Assembly (NCBI GenBank): GCA_964401105.1 | Contig: CAYNXM010000357.1 | Location: 1-20,004, forward strand | From: an uncultured Lyngbya sp. | Lineage (GTDB): Bacteria; Cyanobacteriota; Cyanobacteriia; Cyanobacteriales; Microcoleaceae | DNA: 20,004 nt | Reading direction: 5' to 3' | Part shown: positions 6,204 through 14,704 of the stretch, in pieces | How the letters are laid out: every line of letters begins with the position of its first letter | Numbering within the stretch: position 1 is the stretch's first letter | Translations under genes and position numbers: made by a program | The notes under the pieces: generated by a model | The model's database searches: none | What the model was told of the DNA's origin: nothing | What the model saw: the letters and a program-made list of their open reading frames with translations, nothing else

Positions 6204-6609
6204 AATCAATTGAAAATAGATCTCTAACTTGTCACATTAATCAGTTTGGATTAACTGCTAAGTACAAAGATATTGGAAATTGATATACTTGTTAAATTTT
6301 GATGACATTGTAAAGAAAAATAATGAGTTGGGATGACACGAGTTTACTGAGTTGACAGCTTCCAGTTGGGTTCTGTATGATATGAGATATAGAGTAAGAT
6401 TGGGTATAGGTATGCCTACAAACTCAAATTAGAGTAGATTTATTCTTTAAACCCTGATTATATCGAAGCAACTCTTACCATTAAACTCAGTAGAACTTAT
6501 TTTCTCTACAGCTAGGAAATACAGATATTAAATACCCTACTGTGAGGCAGGGGTTGACAAAACTACATAAATATGATGGCGGGGTGCGTCAATGACTGCG
6601 GCTCAGTCT
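6204..6609. repeat. Noncoding tandem module, copy A (406-bp period)
   Basis: It aligns colinearly with 6610-7127, as detailed in the findings. No ORF is conserved between the copies. Confidence 0.85.
6352..6381 (+). promoter_or_regulatory. Sigma70-type promoter candidate in copy A (TTGACA-N18-TATGAT)
   Basis: TTGACA lies at 6352-6357, the 18-nt spacer at 6358-6375 and TATGAT at 6376-6381. Both hexamers are identical in copy B, whereas 4 of the 18 spacer positions differ. Confidence 0.5.
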
Positions 6610-6757
6610 AATCAACTGAAAATAGATTTCTAACTTCTCACTACAATAAGTTTGGATTAACTGCTAAGCATAAAAATATTGAAAATTGATATACTTGTTA
6701 AATTTTGATGACATTCTCAACAAAAATGATGAGTTGGGATGACACGAGTTTACTGAG

Positions 6758-6787
6758 TTGACAGCTCCCCATCGGGTTCTGTATGAT
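6758..6787 (+). promoter_or_regulatory. Sigma70-type promoter candidate in copy B (TTGACA-N18-TATGAT), pointing toward the 3' end of acs
   Basis: TTGACA lies at 6758-6763, the 18-nt spacer at 6764-6781 and TATGAT at 6782-6787. Confidence 0.5.
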
Positions 6788-6852
6788 ATGAGATATAGAG
6801 TATGATTGGGTATAGGTATGCCTACGAACTCAAACTTTAGTAAGTATTCTCT

Positions 6853-6977
6853 GAGAGGAAATATTAGGCGAGACGGGAAATGCTTGGCGTGACGGGAAAT
6901 GTTTGGCGCGCGCGCCAACCCGTCAAGATAGCCAACCCGTCGATAGCCCAACCCGTCAAGACAGCCAACCTATTAAT
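6853..6977. repeat. Palindromic MITE-like insertion, present only in copy B
   Basis: The centre is TTGGCGCGCGCGCCAA (6903-6918). The left arm carries 2-3 GACGGGAAATGYTTGGCG units. The right arm carries 3 inverted CCAACCCGTC(A/G)A(G)ATAG units. Copy A has no equivalent sequence at this position. Confidence 0.55.
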
Positions 6978-7113
6978 TTCAAACCCCAATCGTATCGAAG
7001 CAACTCTTACCATTAAACTCAGTAGAACTTATTTTCTCTACAGCTAGAAAATACATAAATTAAATACTCTACGGTGAGCGGGAGTTGACAAAACTACAAA
7101 AATATGCAATTTG

Positions 7114-7132
7114 GGTGCGTCAATGACGCACC
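7114..7132 (-). terminator. Palindrome immediately downstream of the acs stop (weak terminator candidate)
   Basis: GGTGCGTCA-a-TGACGCACC starts 10 nt past the acs stop. A usable stem would be about 7 bp. On the minus strand the T run (TATTTTTG) begins only about 12 nt after the stem. Confidence 0.3.
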
Positions 7133-7141
7133 TGAGAGTGA

Positions 7142-9109
7142 TTATGCACCACCGCGTAATTTTTCCAGTACACTGAGATCTTGTAAGGTGGAAGTATCTC
7201 CGGCAATTTCTTCACCTGCTGCTAGGTTTCGTAAAAAGCGCCGCATAATTTTACCGGAACGAGTTTTAGGTAAATCATCGGTAAAGCGAATTTCACCTGG
7301 ACGGGCAATCGGCCCAATTTCTTGCACGACGTGTTGTTTTAGGGTTTTATTTAATTCCTCACTAGCTGCCTCATTTCCTTCTAAGGTGACAAAAGCAACA
7401 ATTTCCTCCCCTTTGACTTCATCAGGTCTGCCTACTACTGCGGCTTCTGCTACTGCCGGATGAGACACTAAAGCCGACTCAATTTCCATCGTTCCCAAAC
7501 GGTGTCCGGCTACACTAATAACATCATCCACACGACCCATTACCCAGAAATAACCATCTTCATCTCTGTGAGCACCATCTCCAGCAAAATAAACATAATT
7601 GCCATCTTTAGGGGGAATAAACTCCCAATAGCTGCGACGATAGCGTTCTGGGTTACCATAAACCGTTCGCATCATACTCGGCCAGGGATGTTTTATGACT
7701 AAATATCCGCCGTCATTGCCTTCAACAGGGTTGCCTGAACCATCGACAATATCAGCAATAATTCCAGGGAAGGGTAACGTGGCTGAACCAGGTTTTGTGG
7801 GGGTTGCACCGGGTAACGGGGTTAACATAAATCCTCCAGTTTCCGTTTGCCACCAGGTATCCACAATCGGACAGCGTTCAGCACCAATTACGCGATGATA
7901 CCACATCCAAGCTTCGGGATTAATCGGTTCGCCAACCGTTCCCAATAGCCGCAAAGACGATAAATTACGGGCGTTAGGATGCTTGTCTCCCATTTTCATC
8001 AATGCCCGAATAGCAGTGGGGGCAGTATAAAAAATCGTTACCCCTTGTTTTTCCACCACATCCCATAAACAGCCAGGGTTAGACGGACGAGGGGCACTTT
8101 CATACATCACCGTCGTTGCCCCATTCGATAACGGCCCATACACAATATAACTATGACCTGTAATCCAACCCACATCAGCAGTACACCAAAAGACATCTGT
8201 ATCTTGTAAATCAAACGTCCATTTGTTGGTCACATGAGTATAAAGGTTATAACCACCTGTCGTATGAACAACACCCTTAGGCTTTCCAGTCGTACCACTT
8301 GTATAAAGGATAAATAGCATATCCTCACTATCCATTGGTTCAGCCGGACAGTCGGGTGAGGCATCCGCTTTTAATTCATGCCACCAATGATCTCGACCCG
8401 CTTCCATGTTAATATCCTGACCAGTGCGTTTCACCGTTAACACATTTTCAACACTGGAAGCGCCTAATTCTATCGCTTTATCGACTTGATCTTTCAGCGC
8501 AACAATAGCATCTTTACGCCAACCGCCATCAGCCGTAATCACTAATTTTGCTTCAGCATCCACTAATCGATCTTTTAACGCTTCGGCACTAAACCCACCA
8601 AACACAACCGTATGCGGCGCACCAATTCTGGCACAAGCCAACATCGCGATCGCGGCTTCTGGTATCATCGGCATATAAATTCCGATGCGATCGCCTTTTT
8701 GCGCCCCCAACTGCTTCAGCACATTTGCCATTTGACAAACTTCTCGATGCAGTTGAGCATAAGTTAAAGTGCGAGAATCTCCCGGTTCCCCTTCCCAAAT
8801 TAAAGCGGCTTTGTTACGTCGCCAAGTCGCCAGATGCCGATCTAAACAATTGTAGGAAATATTAATTTTACCACCGACAAACCACTTGGCAATTGGCGGT
8901 TGCCAGTCCAGTACTGTATCCCATTTCTCAAACCAGTGTAATTCTTTTTCTGCCAATTCTGCCCAAAATCCTTCCGGGTCGGCTTTCGCTTGATCGTAAA
9001 GTTGTTGATATTGCTCTAAACTTTGAATATGGGCATTTTGCGAGAACTCTGTCGGCGGCTCAAACAGGCGTTGCTCATGTAAAATCGATTCAATAGTAGG
9101 TTGTGACAT
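7142..9109 (-). CDS. acs: Acetyl-CoA synthetase (AMP-forming)
   Basis: The motifs [34 protein letters not shown] and [11 protein letters not shown] are present. I trimmed the start to the ATG at 9107-9109 ([19 protein letters not shown]...), the usual Acs N-terminus. The 33 extra codons in the track ORF look like upstream read-through. Confidence 0.95.
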
Positions 9110-9357
9110 TATCGCTGATTGTAACTTTAGACACGATGCTTGATTATCTCTACATTTTGTATCGAAAGCGGCTTGTAGAATCTTTAGTTTAGTTAAAAAA
9201 TGCCTCAATTCTCAACAATTTAGTTATATAGCGCGATACGGCTAACGCCACTAGAAAAGCGAACGCAGTCAGCTTTATAACAATTTTCAAGAATACCCGG
9301 AATTGGATTCATATAACAGAAAGTATAAGTTATCGTCCTTAATAGCCACCTAAACTG

Positions 9358-9828
9358 ATGGAACCGATAGAATTGACTGTTGCCGCATTAGCATCCTTAA
9401 TGATAACGAAAGCCACAGGAAAAGTTGGAGACAAATTGGGGGATAAGATATTTGAACAAGGCGGAAATTTACTGCAACAGCTTCGCCGGAAGTCTCCTCA
9501 AACTGCATCGGCAATTGAAAAAGTTAACCAGACCCCTTTAAATTGGGATCAAGCGGTAATAGATGTTAAGGCAACAGCAGCAGACTATCCAGAGGTTGCC
9601 CAAATAGTTGAGGAAGTAGAAGCAACTATTAGTGATGATACAGAATTGAGAAAAACGTTAGAAGAAATTGCTGCAACGATTAAATCTCAGCCTGCAACCG
9701 TTCAGAATTCCGCCCAGTTAGCCGAGAAAATTAATGCTTTATTTCAGGGAACAACTATTACAGGTGGAAACGTTGGTAATACAGGCATGACAGGCAGTAC
9801 CATTCAAGGCGGTACATTTAATATATGA
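9358..9828 (+). CDS. Small alpha-helical protein with a hydrophobic N-terminal helix and a G/N/T-rich C-terminal tail (possible NLR-associated executioner/adaptor domain)
   Basis: The ORF is 156 aa. It begins MEPIELTVAALASLMITKATGKVG and continues with a charged helical body. The tail is FQGTTITGGNVGNTGMTGSTIQGGTFNI, followed by a TGA stop. It sits directly upstream of, and in the same frame as, the ancestral 5' end of the NB-ARC gene. Confidence 0.6.
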   Translation: MEPIELTVAALASLMITKATGKVGDKLGDKIFEQGGNLLQQLRRKSPQTASAIEKVNQTPLNWDQAVIDVKATAADYPEVAQIVEEVEATISDDTELRKTLEEIAATIKSQPATVQNSAQLAEKINALFQGTTITGGNVGNTGMTGSTIQGGTFNI

Positions 9829-9945
9829 CTGAATAGCCCTCAAACCTCTGCCCCCAAACCCCCAAAATTGGGGGCTTTGAGAGATTGGGACTTTGAGTCC
9901 GGTTCCCCCCAGAATTGGGGGGCTAGGGGGGCAAAACCCTATGAA
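9829..9945. repeat. Cluster of G/C-run hairpin mini-repeats between the helical ORF and the NB-ARC gene
   Basis: CCCCC-AAAATT-GGGGG lies at 9859-9874 and CCCCCC-AGAATT-GGGGGG at 9905-9922. CTTTGAG is duplicated at 9875-9881 and 9891-9897. The style matches the element at 1801-1868. Confidence 0.5.
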
Positions 9946-11544
9946 AACCTAGATCGACGCGGTATTACTGAACGCGATAAATTTGTTGGACGCGATTCTC
10001 TTGACAGAGAGGCTACGCCAACGCACACTTACAGAACTGTATCAATTATTGCAGCAAAATACCCAAGTTGCGATTACTGCCGCAGTCGTGGGTATGGGCG
10101 GCGTAGGTAAAACAGAACTGGCTATTCAATACGCCCGTCAACACCTCAATGACACTTACAAAGGCGGCGTATGCTTCCTGACTGGCAATAGTTTTATCTT
10201 GGAGTTAATTCAATTTGCCCGTCCTCGCTTCTTCCCGCAGAAGGACTTTAGCGGCTTTTCTGAAAAGGAACAATTAGACTATTGCTGGACACATTGGGCA
10301 GAAGGGAAAGTATTGTTAATTGTAGATGATGTCACAAACTACAAACAACAGGTTAAGCCCTATTTACCCAGTTCTCCTCGGTTTAAAATATTAGTTACCA
10401 CAAGAGAACAGATCTCTAACGTTACTCCTCTCAATTTAGAAGTCCTGCATCCCGAAGATGCCTTAAAATTACTTGAGTTTATCGTAGGGAAAAATCGCAT
10501 CGAAGCAGAAGCCGAAACCGCAAAAGAGTTGTGTCAATGGTTAGGCTATTTACCGTTGGGGTTAGAATTAGTTGGGCAATATTTAGCAGAAGATGAAGAT
10601 CTGTCTTTAGCGAAGATACTACAACGCCTGCAACGTAAACGCCTACAACATTCTTCACTAAAAGATGCAGATACAGCAGAAACCGCAAAATTAGGAGTCG
10701 CCGCAGCCTTTGAATTAAGCTGGGAGAGGTTGCAACAACAACCCGAAACCCAACAATTAGGCTGTTTATTATCGCTATTTTCTCCTGATGAGATATTGTG
10801 GGACTTAGTGGAAGCAGTATATCTCTATTGGCAAGGGAAGGATATTGATAGCGAAGATATTGAAGATAGCAGACGCAAATTAGTTAAACTCAGCCTATTT
10901 CAACAAAGCAAAGAGAAAGAGAACACCTATCGCCTGCATCAACTACTGCGGGAGTTTTTCCGCGACAAACTAGAACAACAAGCAGAGGCAGCGGCAATGA
11001 AACAAGCCTTTGTTACCACAATGGTTAATATTGCTTCTCAAATTCCTTACAATATTACAACGAAACAAATTAAACAAGTTGAACCTGCTATTAAACATAT
11101 CGAAGAAGTGGCTAACACTTTTGTTGAATTGTTACCCGATGAAAATTTAATTTTGCCATTTATTGGTTTAGGTCAGTTTTATGAAGGTCAGATCTTGTAT
11201 TCAGAAGCCGAACCTTTCTTTACTCCTCACAAGGGCGTTACAGTGAAGCTGAACCGTTGTTCAAACAAGCTTTAACAATGTATCAACGGCTATTTAAGGA
11301 AGATCATCCTGATGTGGCTAGAGGACTGAATAACTTAGGCGGACTTTACTCCTCTCAAGGACGTTACAGTGAGGCTGAACCGTTGTACAAAGATGCTTTA
11401 GAAATATTGATAAAAACAGTCGGTGAAGATCACCCTAATACTAAAACTTGTAGAGGAAACTTAATCAGATTTTCTAAGACAGTTAATGAATTGATTGAAT
11501 CTTTCATGTCTCAGTTTCAACAGTCAGAAAATTCATCCGAATAA
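9938..11544 (+). pseudogene. NB-ARC/TPR STAND NTPase (bacterial NLR-like), disrupted by a frameshift near 10000 and a collapsed, frameshifted TPR array
   Basis: The pre-P-loop motif NLDRRGITERDKFVGRD is in frame 1 (9944-9996). Walker A GMGGVGKT (10091-10114), Walker B VLLIVDDV and KILVTTRE are in frame 2. No ATG-initiated frame covers both segments. The frame-2 ORF stops at 11275, and the TPR motifs (LNNLGGLYSSQGRYSEAEPLYKDALEI) continue in frame 1 to 11544. Confidence 0.75.
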
Positions 11545-11764: not shown

Positions 11765-12187
11765 CTACATATCGGGTTCAAAAAAATATTCAAATCCCTT
11801 CTGTTTTAATCCAGCTTTAAGTTTTTTGTCTCCTGTCCACAATAAACCTTGCAATTGCAATGTTAAAGCCACATGAGGTGTATCACTTACATCCACATCG
11901 CGACAATATTCATAAGCTAATGAGCGATTTTCAATTGCGATCAAGTCTTCTTTGTATAAATTAATCCGCCTCAATAAAATATGATAAACTTTAATCACTT
12001 CATCTTCTGTTAATTGACTACGCTGAATAATTTTTTCTTTTCGTTTAAAAAGTTCAACTAAGACTAGCTCACAAACAAATAAATTGTACTCTGATTTAAA
12101 AATAAATTCAGTGAACCGAGATTGCTCCCTTAGTAGTGAAGAAAATAAAATATTCGTATCAATAATTATCGGTGGCATCGACATCAT
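11765..12187 (-). CDS. PIN-domain ribonuclease toxin (VapC-like)
   Basis: IIIDTNILFSSLL is the first acidic PIN motif, and DVSDTPHVALTLQLQGLLWTGDKKL is the distal PIN motif region. The ATG overlaps the stop of the upstream small gene (TGATG). Confidence 0.8.
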   Translation of the reverse strand: MMSMPPIIIDTNILFSSLLREQSRFTEFIFKSEYNLFVCELVLVELFKRKEKIIQRSQLTEDEVIKVYHILLRRINLYKEDLIAIENRSLAYEYCRDVDVSDTPHVALTLQLQGLLWTGDKKLKAGLKQKGFEYFFEPDM

Positions 12188-12414
12188 CAATAACCAGTAA
12201 ACTTAGATTGAATACTTTCCCAAACTGCTTGATCAATCTCCAAGGCTAATTGATCTGCTTGTTCTCCTGTTAATTGACTTCGCTTGCGAATGGACTCTAA
12301 CTCTAGATAATCTAAAAACATTCTGAGTTGCTCTAAGTCGATTGACTCTCGGTTTAGCCGAACAACAATATCTTTATTTTCTAGTCTAATTGTGTAGTTT
12401 GATTGTTCTGACAT
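12187..12414 (-). CDS. Cognate small antitoxin-like protein of the PIN toxin
   Basis: I trimmed the track ORF to the ATG at 12412-12414 (MSEQSNYTIRLENKD...), giving 75 aa. The protein is acidic and helical at the C-terminus and is coupled to the PIN gene. No family is recognised, so the call rests on operon architecture. Confidence 0.55.
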   Translation of the reverse strand: MSEQSNYTIRLENKDIVVRLNRESIDLEQLRMFLDYLELESIRKRSQLTGEQADQLALEIDQAVWESIQSKFTGY

Positions 12415-12569
12415 TTTATTTTGAGAACTTGTCATTGATCTATCATTATTATAAATGACTCTCACTAAAACAGAGATAAAATTATGCGATCGCGTAATTG
12501 ACTTCACCATAAGTGGCTTTGTGATACTATATTATCATCAAGGTAAAATGCAGTCCTTAAAATAAGATT

Positions 12570-12860
12570 ATGCTAAATGGTATCAAACAACGAGGAGTTG
12601 TGAGTAAAGATGGCAAAATTGAAATTCAAATACCTGAACTCCCAGAAGGAACAATTGTTGAGGTTATCGTTTTAGTTGAGAAAGAAATAATAGAATCAGA
12701 TTGTAGTTCGCAAATTCCACAAGATACAACAGAATATTTACTCTCAAATGGATCTAATCGTCGTCATTTAATGACTGGAATTGAAAATATAGAAAATAAT
12801 ACTAATCTTGTTAGTTTTACTCAAGAGAAATGGGATGAGGAACATAACATTCACTCCTAA
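12570..12860 (+). CDS. Chimeric antitoxin with a YefM-type C-terminal toxin-binding tail on a non-YefM beta-rich N-terminal domain
   Basis: The C-terminus TTEYLLSNGSNRRHLMTGIENIENN resembles the E. coli YefM segment [22 protein letters not shown]. The N-terminus GVVSKDGKIEIQIPELPEGTIVEVIVLVEKE lacks the Phd/YefM fold signature and resembles AF2212/DUF104-type antitoxins. The gene overlaps the yoeB-like start. Confidence 0.65.
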   Translation: MLNGIKQRGVVSKDGKIEIQIPELPEGTIVEVIVLVEKEIIESDCSSQIPQDTTEYLLSNGSNRRHLMTGIENIENNTNLVSFTQEKWDEEHNIHS

Positions 12861-13098
12861 AGCCTTTGAAGATTTTAATAATTGGGCAATACAAGATAAG
12901 AAAACTTCTCGTAAGATTATTACTCTGATTAACGATATACTTCGTCAACCTTTTACTGGGTTGGGTAAACCTGAACCTTTGAAACATGAGCTGAAAGGAT
13001 ATTGGTCACGGCGCATTACTGATGAGCATCGTTTAGTCTATAAGGTTAGTGAGAATGCAATTATTATTCTAAGTTGTCGATTTCATTATGATGACTAA
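12835..13098 (+). CDS. yoeB: YoeB/Txe-family mRNA interferase toxin
   Basis: [33 protein letters not shown]....[10 protein letters not shown] is near-identical in pattern to E. coli YoeB ([31 protein letters not shown]...CRYHY). The start is set at the ATG at 12835 ([14 protein letters not shown]). Confidence 0.85.
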   Translation: [87 protein letters not shown]

Positions 13099-13107
13099 CC
13101 TGAAAGA

Positions 13108-13297
13108 GATTCTATATTGAGGCTAAATCATTATAGAAAGTTAAATGAAAACTATACAATTATACCTTGCAGTTCCGATAGAAACATATCGCTCTTTTTT
13201 CAGTCGAGATTTAGCACAGGCATCTGTACAAGAATATCAAGTTAAAATGATTATTTATGATTCTATGAATGAGGTAATAATACAATGGATAAACTAG
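13108..13297 (+). pseudogene. xisH: xisH remnant (C-terminal third only, with an internal frameshift)
   Basis: IQLYLAVPIETYRSFFSRDLAQASVQEYQVKMIIYDSMNEVIIQWIN matches the XisH C-terminus (..LYLAVP...Y..FF........YQVK(L/M)I.(F/Y)....E.I.QW.N). LNHYRKLNENY lies just upstream in another frame. The stop overlaps the xisI ATG, as in intact xisHI pairs. The N-terminal ~90 aa are absent. Confidence 0.6.
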
Positions 13298-13449
13298 AAA
13301 AAAAACGTCAAATAATTCAAGAATTTTTAATCAAGTACAGTGACTTTCAAATAAAAGAAGAACATATTGAAACTCAGTTAATATTTGATCCTGAACGAGA
13401 TCATTATCAAATATTAGAATTAGGTTGGGAAGGTTATGATCGAATTTAC
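13285..13449 (+). pseudogene. xisI: xisI remnant (N-terminal half)
   Basis: MDKLEKKRQIIQEFLIKY......IETQLIFDPERDHYQILELGWEGYDRIY fits the XisI N-terminal pattern. Past 13449 the plus-strand reading is merely the antisense of the MNT remnant. Confidence 0.7.
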
Positions 13450-13659
13450 AAAGGAAAGATGCATAAAGTTATCAAACGTTTTTTGATTCGGCTTAAACAT
13501 CACTAGAATATCAACATCACTTTGATTATTAATCTCAGTATCACGGACAAATGAACCGAAAATACCACAACGACTGATTCCAAAAGGTTGTAAATCCTGT
13601 TGATTTTTTTGCAGTAAAGATCAAACTTCAGCTTTCGTTTGTACAGGTATTGTTTGCAT
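13450..13659 (-). pseudogene. MNT-type nucleotidyltransferase (HEPN/MNT antitoxin-like) remnant, frameshifted and 3'-truncated
   Basis: The minus strand reads MQTIPVQTKAEV and then a stop. After a 1-nt shift it reads SLLQKNQQDLQPFGISRCGIFGSFVRDTEINNQSDVDILVMFKPNQKTFDNFMHLSF, which carries the GSxxRG..x..SDxDhhV nucleotidyltransferase motif. Homology stops at the junction with xisI. Confidence 0.65.
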
Positions 13660-13729: not shown

Positions 13730-14704
13730 TTAAGGTGTTTGCCAAATTCGTTGATGATAATCTTCTAATTTCTCATAAGGATCGACGCTATCATGATTGT
13801 GGTTATGATTATGATCGTGATGATGGTGATGATGATGACCGTTAGAATCATCCGAAACCGCAGCTAAACGGAATTTACAAGCTTCACAATTCATCTGGAC
13901 TTGTCCGAGTTGGGTTTCAATTTCGCGATCGCGCAACAGATATAATAATTCTGAATGAATTCCCATTTCCGGTAAACAGTCCATCTGTACTTCAGGATGT
14001 TGCTGTTGTTGAAGGGTAGTAATATCAAAGATTTTCTTGACTAATACCCCTGTAAATAGGAAATAAGGCAAGACAATAATTCGTTTGGGTTTGTACAATA
14101 ACGCCCGACGAAAGCCTTCTTCTAGGCGCGGATGGGTAATACCGATAAAACAGGTTTCTACCGTGGAATAACCGCTGCCTTCCCACACCATCCGTGCTAA
14201 TTTATAAACATCGCCATTAGCATCCGGATCGCTTGCCCCCCGTCCGACAAATAGCAATACGGTCTCAGACCGAGGAATTTGCTGAGGATTATGTTGAGGG
14301 GAGTCTAATTCTGCTAAGCGAGTCTTCCAGAGTTGTAAAATTCTGGGGTGAATGCCGAAATGACGGCCATAATGAAACTGAACTTGAGGATAATGTTGGC
14401 GGGCATGGTCGAGTTCGTTAGTGATATCAAATTTGTTGTGGCGGGCGGCAAATAAGAGTAAGGGTAACGCCGATAAATCAGTATAACCTTGTTCGAGACA
14501 CTGAGTCACACCGTCTTCAATGGTGGGGGTGGTTAATTCCAAAAAACAAGGAATAACGGGGCGAGACTCATCTAAATTTTGATAAGCGGTAGCAAAGTCT
14601 AAAAAAGTTTGACGACCTTGATGATCGCGGGTGCCATGGCCAATCAGCAGTAAAGGACGTTGTAGCGGCAGTGGCGTCAAAGAATGTGTTGTGTTCAATT
14701 CCAT
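13730..14704 (-). CDS. cbiX: Sirohydrochlorin cobaltochelatase, long form (CbiX-type) with a His-rich C-terminal tail
   Basis: There are two chelatase halves ([10 protein letters not shown] and [17 protein letters not shown]). These are followed by NCEACKF and [17 protein letters not shown] cobalamin riboswitch lies in the 5' leader. Confidence 0.85.

Follow-up and report, generated by a model that had tools for sequence, protein, structure and literature searches.

We studied a small Bell-like effector gene and the NLR-type receptor gene behind it, located in a 20,004-nucleotide (nt) stretch of DNA from an uncultured Lyngbya sp. (contig CAYNXM010000357.1; called the window in the following). 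The locus consists of an open reading frame (ORF) of 156 amino acids (aa), its TGA stop, a post-stop linker and the remains of a STAND NTPase gene; respective coordinates are listed in Table 1. The ORF starts with ATG, begins with MEPIELTVAALASLMITKATGKVG, finishes with TITGGNVGNTGMTGSTIQGGTFNI and is terminated by the TGA at 9826-9828. These boundaries had been given in an earlier reading of the sequence alone (the original prediction) and are confirmed by ORF list and translation. The same holds for the downstream gene, which had been taken for an NB-ARC/TPR STAND NTPase: Pfam finds NB-ARC, DUF7779 and TPR. Both coding regions had also been said to share one frame interrupted only by the TGA, and frame 1 indeed stays open for 93 codons past this stop, through ...NLDRRGITERDKFVGRD. 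The arrangement of a Bell-like ORF, a single TGA followed by C (TGA-C) and a receptor in frame recurs among relatives of the locus, and we favor programmed read-through of the UGA as its explanation.

Effector gene, family and amyloid motif

A word-indexed search returned 50 homologues of the 156-aa ORF (best E 7.6e-88), all of them cyanobacterial and 128-176 aa in size. Those with names stem without exception from filamentous cyanobacteria, e.g., Limnoraphis, Symploca/Caldora, Okeania, Dapis, Pelatocladus and Microcoleaceae. Among 1.84 billion cluster representatives, 439 match the ORF profile at E<=1e-3. The ratio of non-synonymous to synonymous substitution rates (dN/dS) against the Limnoraphis orthologue is 0.18, and the ORF in the window is under purifying selection. 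Given the homologues, the 439-member profile family and this ratio, 9358-9828 is a real gene rather than a chance ORF.

Within the family alignment, M1, E2, P3 and E5 are near-invariant, i.e., the proteins share an M-E-P-x-E start. The AlphaFold2 (AF2) model, computed with the family alignment, shows a bundle of seven helices (residues 3-130) with a predicted local distance difference test score (pLDDT) of about 90 over most of residues 1-110, while residues 133-156 are disordered (pLDDT <50). The hydrophobic first helix, the helical body and the G/N/T-rich tail of the original prediction are thus recovered as MEPIE start, bundle and disordered tail. Bell domains are small (about 120-160 aa) all-alpha proteins whose first helix is hydrophobic and in which position 2 or 3 is acidic; the ORF shows all of these features. 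In addition, its N-terminus agrees with the MEPIS signature that was described for the N-terminus of Bell, Hell and Bab domains (10.1101/2024.11.07.622273). Scans of the ORF and 31 aligned relatives with Pfam, NCBIfam and PADLOC, none of which contains a Bell model, gave only noise (coiled-coil-like JetC, ZorA, Sec10_N).

The C-terminal core LAEKI[NG]xxxQG is conserved throughout the family. In the window, the tail QLAEKINALFQG...GGTFNI matches the consensus KLA[DE]KIG.VV..GG...I of BASS5, a bacterial amyloid signalling sequence (BASS) of about 25 aa at effector C-termini. The tail is a BASS5 variant that carries a 14-residue G/N/T-rich insertion. We regard it as a putative amyloid-forming segment; it is disordered in the AF2 model and G/N/T-rich in composition.

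Relatives organized as two genes provide the second half of the motif pair. The stop is TAA in 13 of the 43 genome loci, and 12 of these 13 are followed by a separate NB-ARC or NACHT STAND NTPase gene that starts independently at an ATG, GTG or TTG located 10-377 nt downstream. For these 12 loci, the N-terminus of the separate STAND NTPase repeats the effector motif, with a degenerate copy in some. For instance, one effector ends with ...NSAKLAEKIGLVVQGGKVEIQNFSF* and the respective receptor starts with MNQFGKLAEKIGILVQKGGKV.... Recurrence of one motif on the effector tail and the NLR N-terminus is how bacterial amyloid signalling sequences are defined operationally. The TAA-ending pairs also agree with the bass_05 rows in Table S2 of Dyrka et al., e.g., MPEDSGKFAEKIG... 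on the NLR side. The bass_05 proteins of this table passed the Bell hidden Markov model (Dyrka 2020), and the ORF family has both motif and architecture in common with them, which links it indirectly to this model.

The Bell/BASS reading put forward by the original prediction is therefore supported, namely by the motif pairing in the TAA-ending relatives, the bass_05 match and the MEPIS-like start. That is, the ORF likely encodes a cell-death effector of Bell type that targets membranes and carries BASS5 at its C-terminus, forming the effector half of a filamentous-cyanobacterial NLR module for immunity or cell death; at the family level, this assignment rests on motif pairing and N-terminal signature. 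No motif copy is found at the NLR N-terminus in the window or in any TGA-C locus. Its absence from the window had been observed before and stands. The repeat elements that had been noted at this place are not the cause, since an NLR without motif is normal for the TGA-C architecture. A suggested retrieval of orthologous loci, meant to tell separate from fused genes, gave a divided picture: a separate gene with a repeated tail motif in the 12 TAA-ending loci, and an in-frame TGA-C without repeat in 29 others.

The family also contains a lengthened form in Nodosilinea (L022 6001-7104 / P0070). Here, a charged coiled-coil-like region extends the Bell-BASS5 protein to 364-367 aa, its C-terminal end is formed by a second motif-like tail (...DININDFNF) and there is no NLR nearby.

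The conserved TGA-C stop and the post-stop cassette

Next, we compared the stop codons. Of the 43 genome loci, 29 end with TGA-C, 13 with TAA and one with TGA-G; considering all 47 loci examined, TGA-C is found in 33 and in every locus having an in-frame extension, including the window. In 23/29 TGA-C loci, this single stop is directly succeeded in frame by a P-loop STAND NTPase, which is of NB-ARC type in 21 cases (FVGR + Walker A) and NACHT by Pfam in 2. The receptor classes found behind the same junction are NB-ARC-TPR, NACHT-HEAT and NACHT. Many TGA-C loci have intact downstream frames of 600-1267 aa, and protein identity to the window ORF goes down to 28-40% among them. The Limnoraphis orthologue shows the same arrangement as the window, with an intact NLR frame of 890 or 848 aa in two assemblies. 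No fusion of Bell-BASS5 and NB-ARC by a sense codon is found among the best 150 of the 439 representatives. Since TGA-C is conserved together with the in-frame STAND NTPase, a hairpin follows the stop and no sense-codon fusion is found, the stop is ancient and under selection rather than a fresh nonsense mutation.

Among the other TGA-C loci, one runs on into a GUN4-like domain and two into a 133-aa extension. In the former (L045 6382-7107), the junction of TGA-C and hairpin leads in frame to the GUN4-like domain (Pfam 1.3e-25) in place of a STAND NTPase. The latter two (L013, L014 6400-6801; Tolypothrix, Spirirestis) have a Bell-BASS5 ORF with TGA-C and no canonical hairpin; their 133 in-frame codons show no Pfam match and no P-loop, and a 391-aa ORF comes next.

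The region between stop and receptor behaves like coding sequence that lacks a start of its own. In 17 loci (15 distinct), there is not a single in-frame ATG, GTG or TTG from the TGA to FVGR, and in Limnoraphis, L053 and L081 the earliest canonical start is at or adjoins the Walker A motif. For 42 close pairs, substitutions within the start-less spacer are distributed 62/37/110 over codon positions 1/2/3. Spacers differ in length (25-51 codons) without ever leaving the triplet register. Immediately behind the stop, the loci have CTG, CTA, CTC, CAG, CCG or CCA, i.e., +4 C is invariant, and since the codon varies, it is not a conserved initiator. We also compared virtual read-through products with the NLR N-termini of the two-gene loci and found both to be collinear, in the order motif, SSGxxP, NLPxSG and FVGR. 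Therefore, read-through would place the effector's BASS5 where the NLR-side motif sits classically.

Directly behind the stop, 33 nt are conserved at the nucleotide level, including third codon positions. This cassette of about 35 nt has the consensus TGA CTG GAG TCG TCG GGA GGG GCA CCG ACA AAG. It contains a 5-bp stem GUCGG/CCGAC that starts 8 nt past the UGA and for which 97.6% of cells are paired (25 sequences). Two stem pairs show compensatory changes, i.e., UA to CG/GC at one and GC to CG (5 sequences) or to UA (3 sequences) at the other. With a covariance model of the cassette, each canonical-hairpin TGA-C locus searched gives a single match of 47-77 bits (42 in one), and the two-gene loci give none. 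No Rfam family, including the selenocysteine insertion sequence (SECIS), matched the cassette at E values up to 10.

Three further candidate elements were dropped. An outer helix of UGACU (at the stop) with a downstream AGUUA was discarded because the 3' arm reads AAAA in many loci. The Shine-Dalgarno-like loop GGAGG was rejected as ribosome binding site of the NLR, as no start codon comes after it and the loop sequence is variable. Finally, a GTG within FVGR as alternative start was rejected given that it is present in 17/35 loci only.

To recover loci independently of the flanking proteins, metagenome contigs were scanned with the DNA pattern TGACN6CGTCGGN8CCGACAAAG, which is blind to them. 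The scan gave 50 loci, and in 27 of these the TGA ends a Bell-like ORF; the remaining 23 matches, located in unrelated sequence without such an ORF, were discarded. The complete ORFs among the 27 are 124-159 aa long and have a hydrophobic M[EDIL][EP]... start. The frame stays open behind the stop in all 27 cases; it runs off the contig or extends over 180-848 codons that include FVGR and/or a P-loop. By sequence, the upstream ORFs belong to at least four subfamilies that differ in their Q/N-rich tails, and only some of the ORFs match the BASS5 profile strongly. In locus L084 (3080-3520), the Bell-like gene ahead of a canonical cassette is fragmented: its frame shifts after about 30 codons, and another in-frame TGA-C precedes the junction stop by 21 codons, reflecting either decay or poor assembly quality.

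Proposed read-through and its alternatives

Taken together, a Bell-BASS5 effector joined by programmed UGA read-through to an in-frame receptor is, in our judgment, probably the best explanation of these loci. Two of the features expected of a read-through site are found, i.e., a conserved leaky stop context and, at the family level, an in-frame coding extension without a start of its own. A structure about 8 nt past the stop is a hallmark of viral read-through signals. Regarding the stop context, termination in bacteria is inefficient at +4C, especially for UGA (PMC5289835). The more general claim, that many cyanobacterial NLR modules are single recoded genes in which UGA-C, 8-nt spacer and covarying hairpin (possibly a pseudoknot) program the read-through, has to our mind a slightly better than even chance of being correct.

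Under read-through, the module would work as follows. The majority of ribosomes would stop at the UGA and produce an abundant free effector of 16 kDa. A minority would decode the UGA, probably via a near-cognate tRNA such as tRNA-Trp, yielding a rare fusion of Bell, BASS5, linker, NB-ARC/NACHT and repeats. Upon a trigger, the receptor part would oligomerize and thereby bring BASS5 segments together, from which the amyloid fold would nucleate. This fold would then template the pool of free effector and free its N-terminal helix for membrane attack. Comparable release of the helix for membrane attack is described, as a proposal or as a demonstrated step, for Bell/Bab and HET-S systems (10.1101/2020.01.06.895854; 10.1101/2024.11.07.622273).

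Several points weigh against this explanation. At the protein level, a sequence profile search of the ORF against PDB gave no usable fold (the best match, MCP, with E 5e-4, is low-complexity helical), and Foldseek found no significant match in PDB (best E 1.3). The loci are phylogenetically related, i.e., their counts are not independent events. At the RNA level, a stem of 5 bp stimulates only weakly by itself, and folding of individual cassette sequences gives no greater stability than folding of shuffles. The G-rich loop could pair with a C-rich tract 8-16 nt beyond the stem to form an H-type pseudoknot, for which the statistics are divided: it was matched by 0/2000 shuffles of the own sequence but by 434/5000 cross-locus permutations, and two loci are without the pairing. 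We thus regard the pseudoknot as no more than possible. Concerning the window, the canonical hairpin is absent (the cassette model scores 19 bits, or 19-22 for window and Limnoraphis), and there is no functional complete module because the NLR is broken. The read-through product, the inserted residue, amyloid templating and membrane attack are all predicted from sequence. Finally, structure-stimulated read-through is, to our knowledge, undocumented in bacteria.

The same loci could be explained without a fusion if effector and receptor were two separately translated genes, with termination at the TGA, reinitiation nearby and the hairpin serving as coupling or standby element. In other BASS families, the Bell gene and the NLR gene frequently overlap or lie at most 10 bp apart and are presumed polycistronic (Dyrka 2020, 10.1101/2020.01.06.895854), the gene caller set the Limnoraphis NLR start right behind the stop, and CTG is the codon after the stop in many loci. 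However, this codon is CTA, CTC, CAG, CCG or CCA in many others, the cassette holds no start codon, and the 17 start-less loci offer no initiator before FVGR. Furthermore, the invariant +4 C belongs to the context of termination, not of initiation, and a reinitiated receptor would have no BASS motif for contacting the effector, unlike its two-gene relatives. We therefore rate reinitiation as unlikely. A role of the post-stop element as RNase processing site, mRNA stabilizer, small-RNA target or recombination site for module swapping, with the shared frame as by-product, is quite unlikely as well. It would account for the stronger conservation of the cassette compared with the coding sequence around it, and a shuffling junction fits the observation that the cassette joins at least four effector subfamilies to different receptor classes. 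Nevertheless, it leaves unexplained the invariant TGA-C, the frame kept over spacers of 25-51 codons, the missing starts and the coding periodicity.

The original prediction had raised the alternative that Bell and NB-ARC-TPR once formed a single gene, later divided by a nonsense mutation, such that the TGA marks a pseudogene. The shared frames with a single stop in between, the independent decay of the window's NLR and the existence of all-in-one Bell-NLR proteins (10.1101/2020.01.06.895854) speak for it. Given the family, this view has to be given up as highly improbable: the same TGA-C is conserved in 29 of the 43 genome loci, at identities down to 28-40%, and in 27 metagenome contigs, many downstream frames are intact and show coding periodicity, nucleotides past the stop are conserved and covary, and the best 150 representatives hold no sense-codon version. 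Equally remote is a decoding of the UGA as selenocysteine with the hairpin acting as bacterial SECIS. The in-frame UGA and a stem-loop with G-rich loop just downstream are what one would expect in this case, but Rfam shows no SECIS match, the position is an inter-domain linker without redox role, no Cys homologue was seen, and the relatives have TAA and a separate gene instead. The stem is also nearer to the UGA (8 nt) than the 11-nt spacing of the minimal SECIS of E. coli fdhF. In a survey, the selenocysteine trait was not detected in Cyanobacteria (PMC1794560); the cassette genomes themselves were not scanned for selB/selC.

We then related the read-through arrangement to known systems. Among the closest are the published Bell/BASS5-NLR pairs (10.1101/2020.01.06.895854), which share the small helical protein with hydrophobic N-terminal helix and acidic position 2, the C-terminal KLAEKIG..QGG-type motif, the collinear NB-ARC/NACHT partner and the occurrence in filamentous cyanobacteria. 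They differ in being two genes 86-573 bp apart with the motif on the NLR too, whereas the receptor of TGA-C loci has no motif and usually no start and is in frame behind one TGA-C. Compared with published BASS5, the tail within the window has the extra 14-residue insertion. The Bab/Agp system of E. coli ECOR25 (Babybell + BASS11; 10.1101/2024.11.07.622273), for which abortive infection was shown experimentally, likewise combines a MEPIS-like helix, a bundle that cups helix 1 and, at the C-terminus, an amyloid motif common to effector and sensor. It is different with respect to its TPR-GreA/B-C-PIN sensor, its motif, its shorter domain (about 80 aa) and its organization in two genes, and it shows no sequence or fold match to the proteins studied here. 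All-in-one Bell-NLR proteins and the MEPIS-bearing antiphage NLRs (Avast2, bNACHT02/11/23; 10.1101/2024.11.07.622273) resemble the predicted read-through product in architecture. In contrast to TGA-C loci, they are single uninterrupted ORFs without free effector pool and without amyloid motif at the junction. Rare uninterrupted Bell-like fusions were also observed within our data, i.e., to TPR (257 aa) or HEAT repeats (700 aa), in P0099 and P0152; they have neither BASS5 motif nor NTPase domain and are probably deletion derivatives.

With regard to recoding, parallels are found in viruses, i.e., alphavirus-type UGA-C with a 3' stem-loop and the gag-pol junction of murine leukaemia virus (MuLV), where UAG is followed by a pseudoknot after an 8-nt spacer. 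The leaky UGA-C context and an RNA structure about 8 nt downstream are alike, as would be the fixed ratio of short to extended product and the enzymatic or sensor-type extension that are predicted here. The viral cases concern eukaryotic viruses and eRF1; here, bacterial chromosomal genes, RF2, a 5-bp stem with a possible pseudoknot and a predicted read-through are at hand. Bacterial ribosomes are at work in the case of A1 of coliphage Qbeta, where reading of a UGA at low rate extends a small fraction of an abundant small protein. As proposed for TGA-C loci, short and extended forms act together; the differences are that A1 is a phage gene, that the proteins are unrelated and that no stimulatory RNA structure is known for it.

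Read-through at Bell/NLR junctions is not mentioned in Dyrka et al., the Bab/Agp preprint, later papers on detecting amyloid signalling motifs or a survey of prokaryotic in-frame stops. Literature on read-through in connection with NLR, NB-ARC, NACHT or cyanobacteria yielded nothing relevant, with a coverage that is incomplete and leaves room for an earlier description. Within the literature covered, the TGA-C arrangement is an undescribed variant of the known Bell/BASS system. In bacteria, Bell/BASS-NLR pairs correspond to fungal HET-S/NWD2 and to RHIM signalling; matching and dosing of receptor and effector are central to this mechanism. If read-through holds true, it would be a new wiring of amyloid signalling, in which sensor and effector motifs are identical by construction and the stoichiometry is set by recoding efficiency. 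In addition, bacterial chromosomal genes would gain their first case of structure-stimulated programmed read-through, and the few bacterial examples of programmed read-through would be joined by a further one. Moreover, a large share of the family would then be mis-annotated as orphan small proteins and NLRs without defined N-terminus, and such loci would be missed by motif-pair screens since these require the motif on the NLR. For the window itself, the outcome is modest, i.e., an annotated effector gene and a receptor pseudogene, not a complete system.

The receptor remnant of the window and neighboring genes

The features of the locus are summarized in Table 1. The NB-ARC/DUF7779 fragment is 75% identical to residues 46-448 of the Limnoraphis NLR (tblastn). 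Coding of the NLR breaks 58 codons after the TGA. A single intact ORF for NB-ARC-TPR is thus found in Limnoraphis but not in the window, where a 25-nt insertion, an 85-nt deletion and a reduced TPR array are present; many TPR repeats of the Limnoraphis protein (L001) collapse in tblastn onto one window segment. That the effector is intact and its NLR decays, as originally predicted, holds for the window and for a near-identical metagenome contig (98-99%; L047) that has the same decay (+25 nt, -85 nt, TPR loss). In the window, the receptor is a pseudogene next to an intact effector ORF. This effector could be left over from a former module or could work in trans with another BASS5-bearing receptor encoded outside the window.

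Table 1. Features of the effector-receptor locus in the window (positions refer to the 20,004-nt stretch).
Feature	Position	Strand	Evidence
Bell-like effector gene with BASS5-type tail, 156 aa	9358..9828 (incl. stop)	+	ORF translation, homologues, dN/dS, AF2 bundle
N-terminal hydrophobic helix MEPIELTVAALASLMITKATGKVG, MEPIS-like signature	9358..9429	+	near-invariant residues; AF2 helix at residues 3-20
Expanded BASS5-type amyloid-signalling tail AQLAEKINALFQGTTITGGNVGNTGMTGSTIQGGTFNI (predicted)	9712..9825	+	conserved core, NLR-side copies in relatives, bass_05 rows
In-frame stop in weak TGA-C context, putative read-through site	9826..9829	+	conservation in family
Post-stop linker in effector frame, ending at NB-ARC entry KFVGRD (9979-9996)	9829..10002	+	frame-1 translation, Limnoraphis alignment
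GC-rich palindromes CCCCCAAAATTGGGGG / CCCCCAGAATTGGGGG in place of canonical hairpin, as in Limnoraphis	9849..9933	+	repeat analysis, fold, covariance score
25-nt insertion relative to intact orthologue, NLR frame 1 to frame 2	10003..10027 (approx.)	+	DNA alignment, tblastn frames
NB-ARC + DUF7779 fragment, NLR pseudogene, frame 2	9983..11275	+	Pfam NB-ARC 4.7e-18, DUF7779 7.8e-07
85-nt deletion site, second frameshift	11214..11215	+	DNA alignment
TPR sensor remnant, about 2 repeats vs. about 10 in Limnoraphis, frame 1	11257..11544	+	Pfam TPR_12, TPR_10; tblastn

The repeat elements that had been described at the NLR 5' end are present as well. They are local palindromes, unique within the window, and folding of the stretch gives -50.2 kcal/mol (z -1.8). 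Since they are likewise located in frame inside the intact 890-aa NLR of Limnoraphis, they displaced no motif. The linker differs from that of Limnoraphis by two insertions (11 and 16 nt), adding up to 27 nt such that the frame is kept.

Window and L047 (2452-2922) differ by 13 nt within an otherwise identical first 1.4 kb, and all of these differences are within the effector ORF. The five resulting amino-acid changes are clustered at residues 22-33 (9421-9456; GKVGDKLGDKIF vs. GKTGEKLGEKLV), while 140 nt past the stop are identical. This cluster looks like a gene-conversion patch from a paralogue. A different kind of variation is seen between the two Limnoraphis robusta assemblies (L001 and L002, NLR at 6472-9144 and 6472-9018, respectively). 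Their NLRs of 890 and 848 aa differ by one 42-residue TPR unit, so the number of repeats in the sensor array varies.

Directly past the NLR remnant, a cluster of small mobile or addiction-type genes is found at 11765-13506 (names taken from the L047 annotation). It comprises a PIN-domain ORF (11765-12190) that overlaps its partner (12187-12510). A YoeB-like toxin ORF (12808-13098) also has a partner, located upstream of it (12570-12860), and the cluster further includes XisH- and XisI-like ORFs, which are short (13145-13506). Further downstream, a CbiX-type chelatase ORF with a C-terminal run rich in histidine is encoded on the minus strand (13730-14704).

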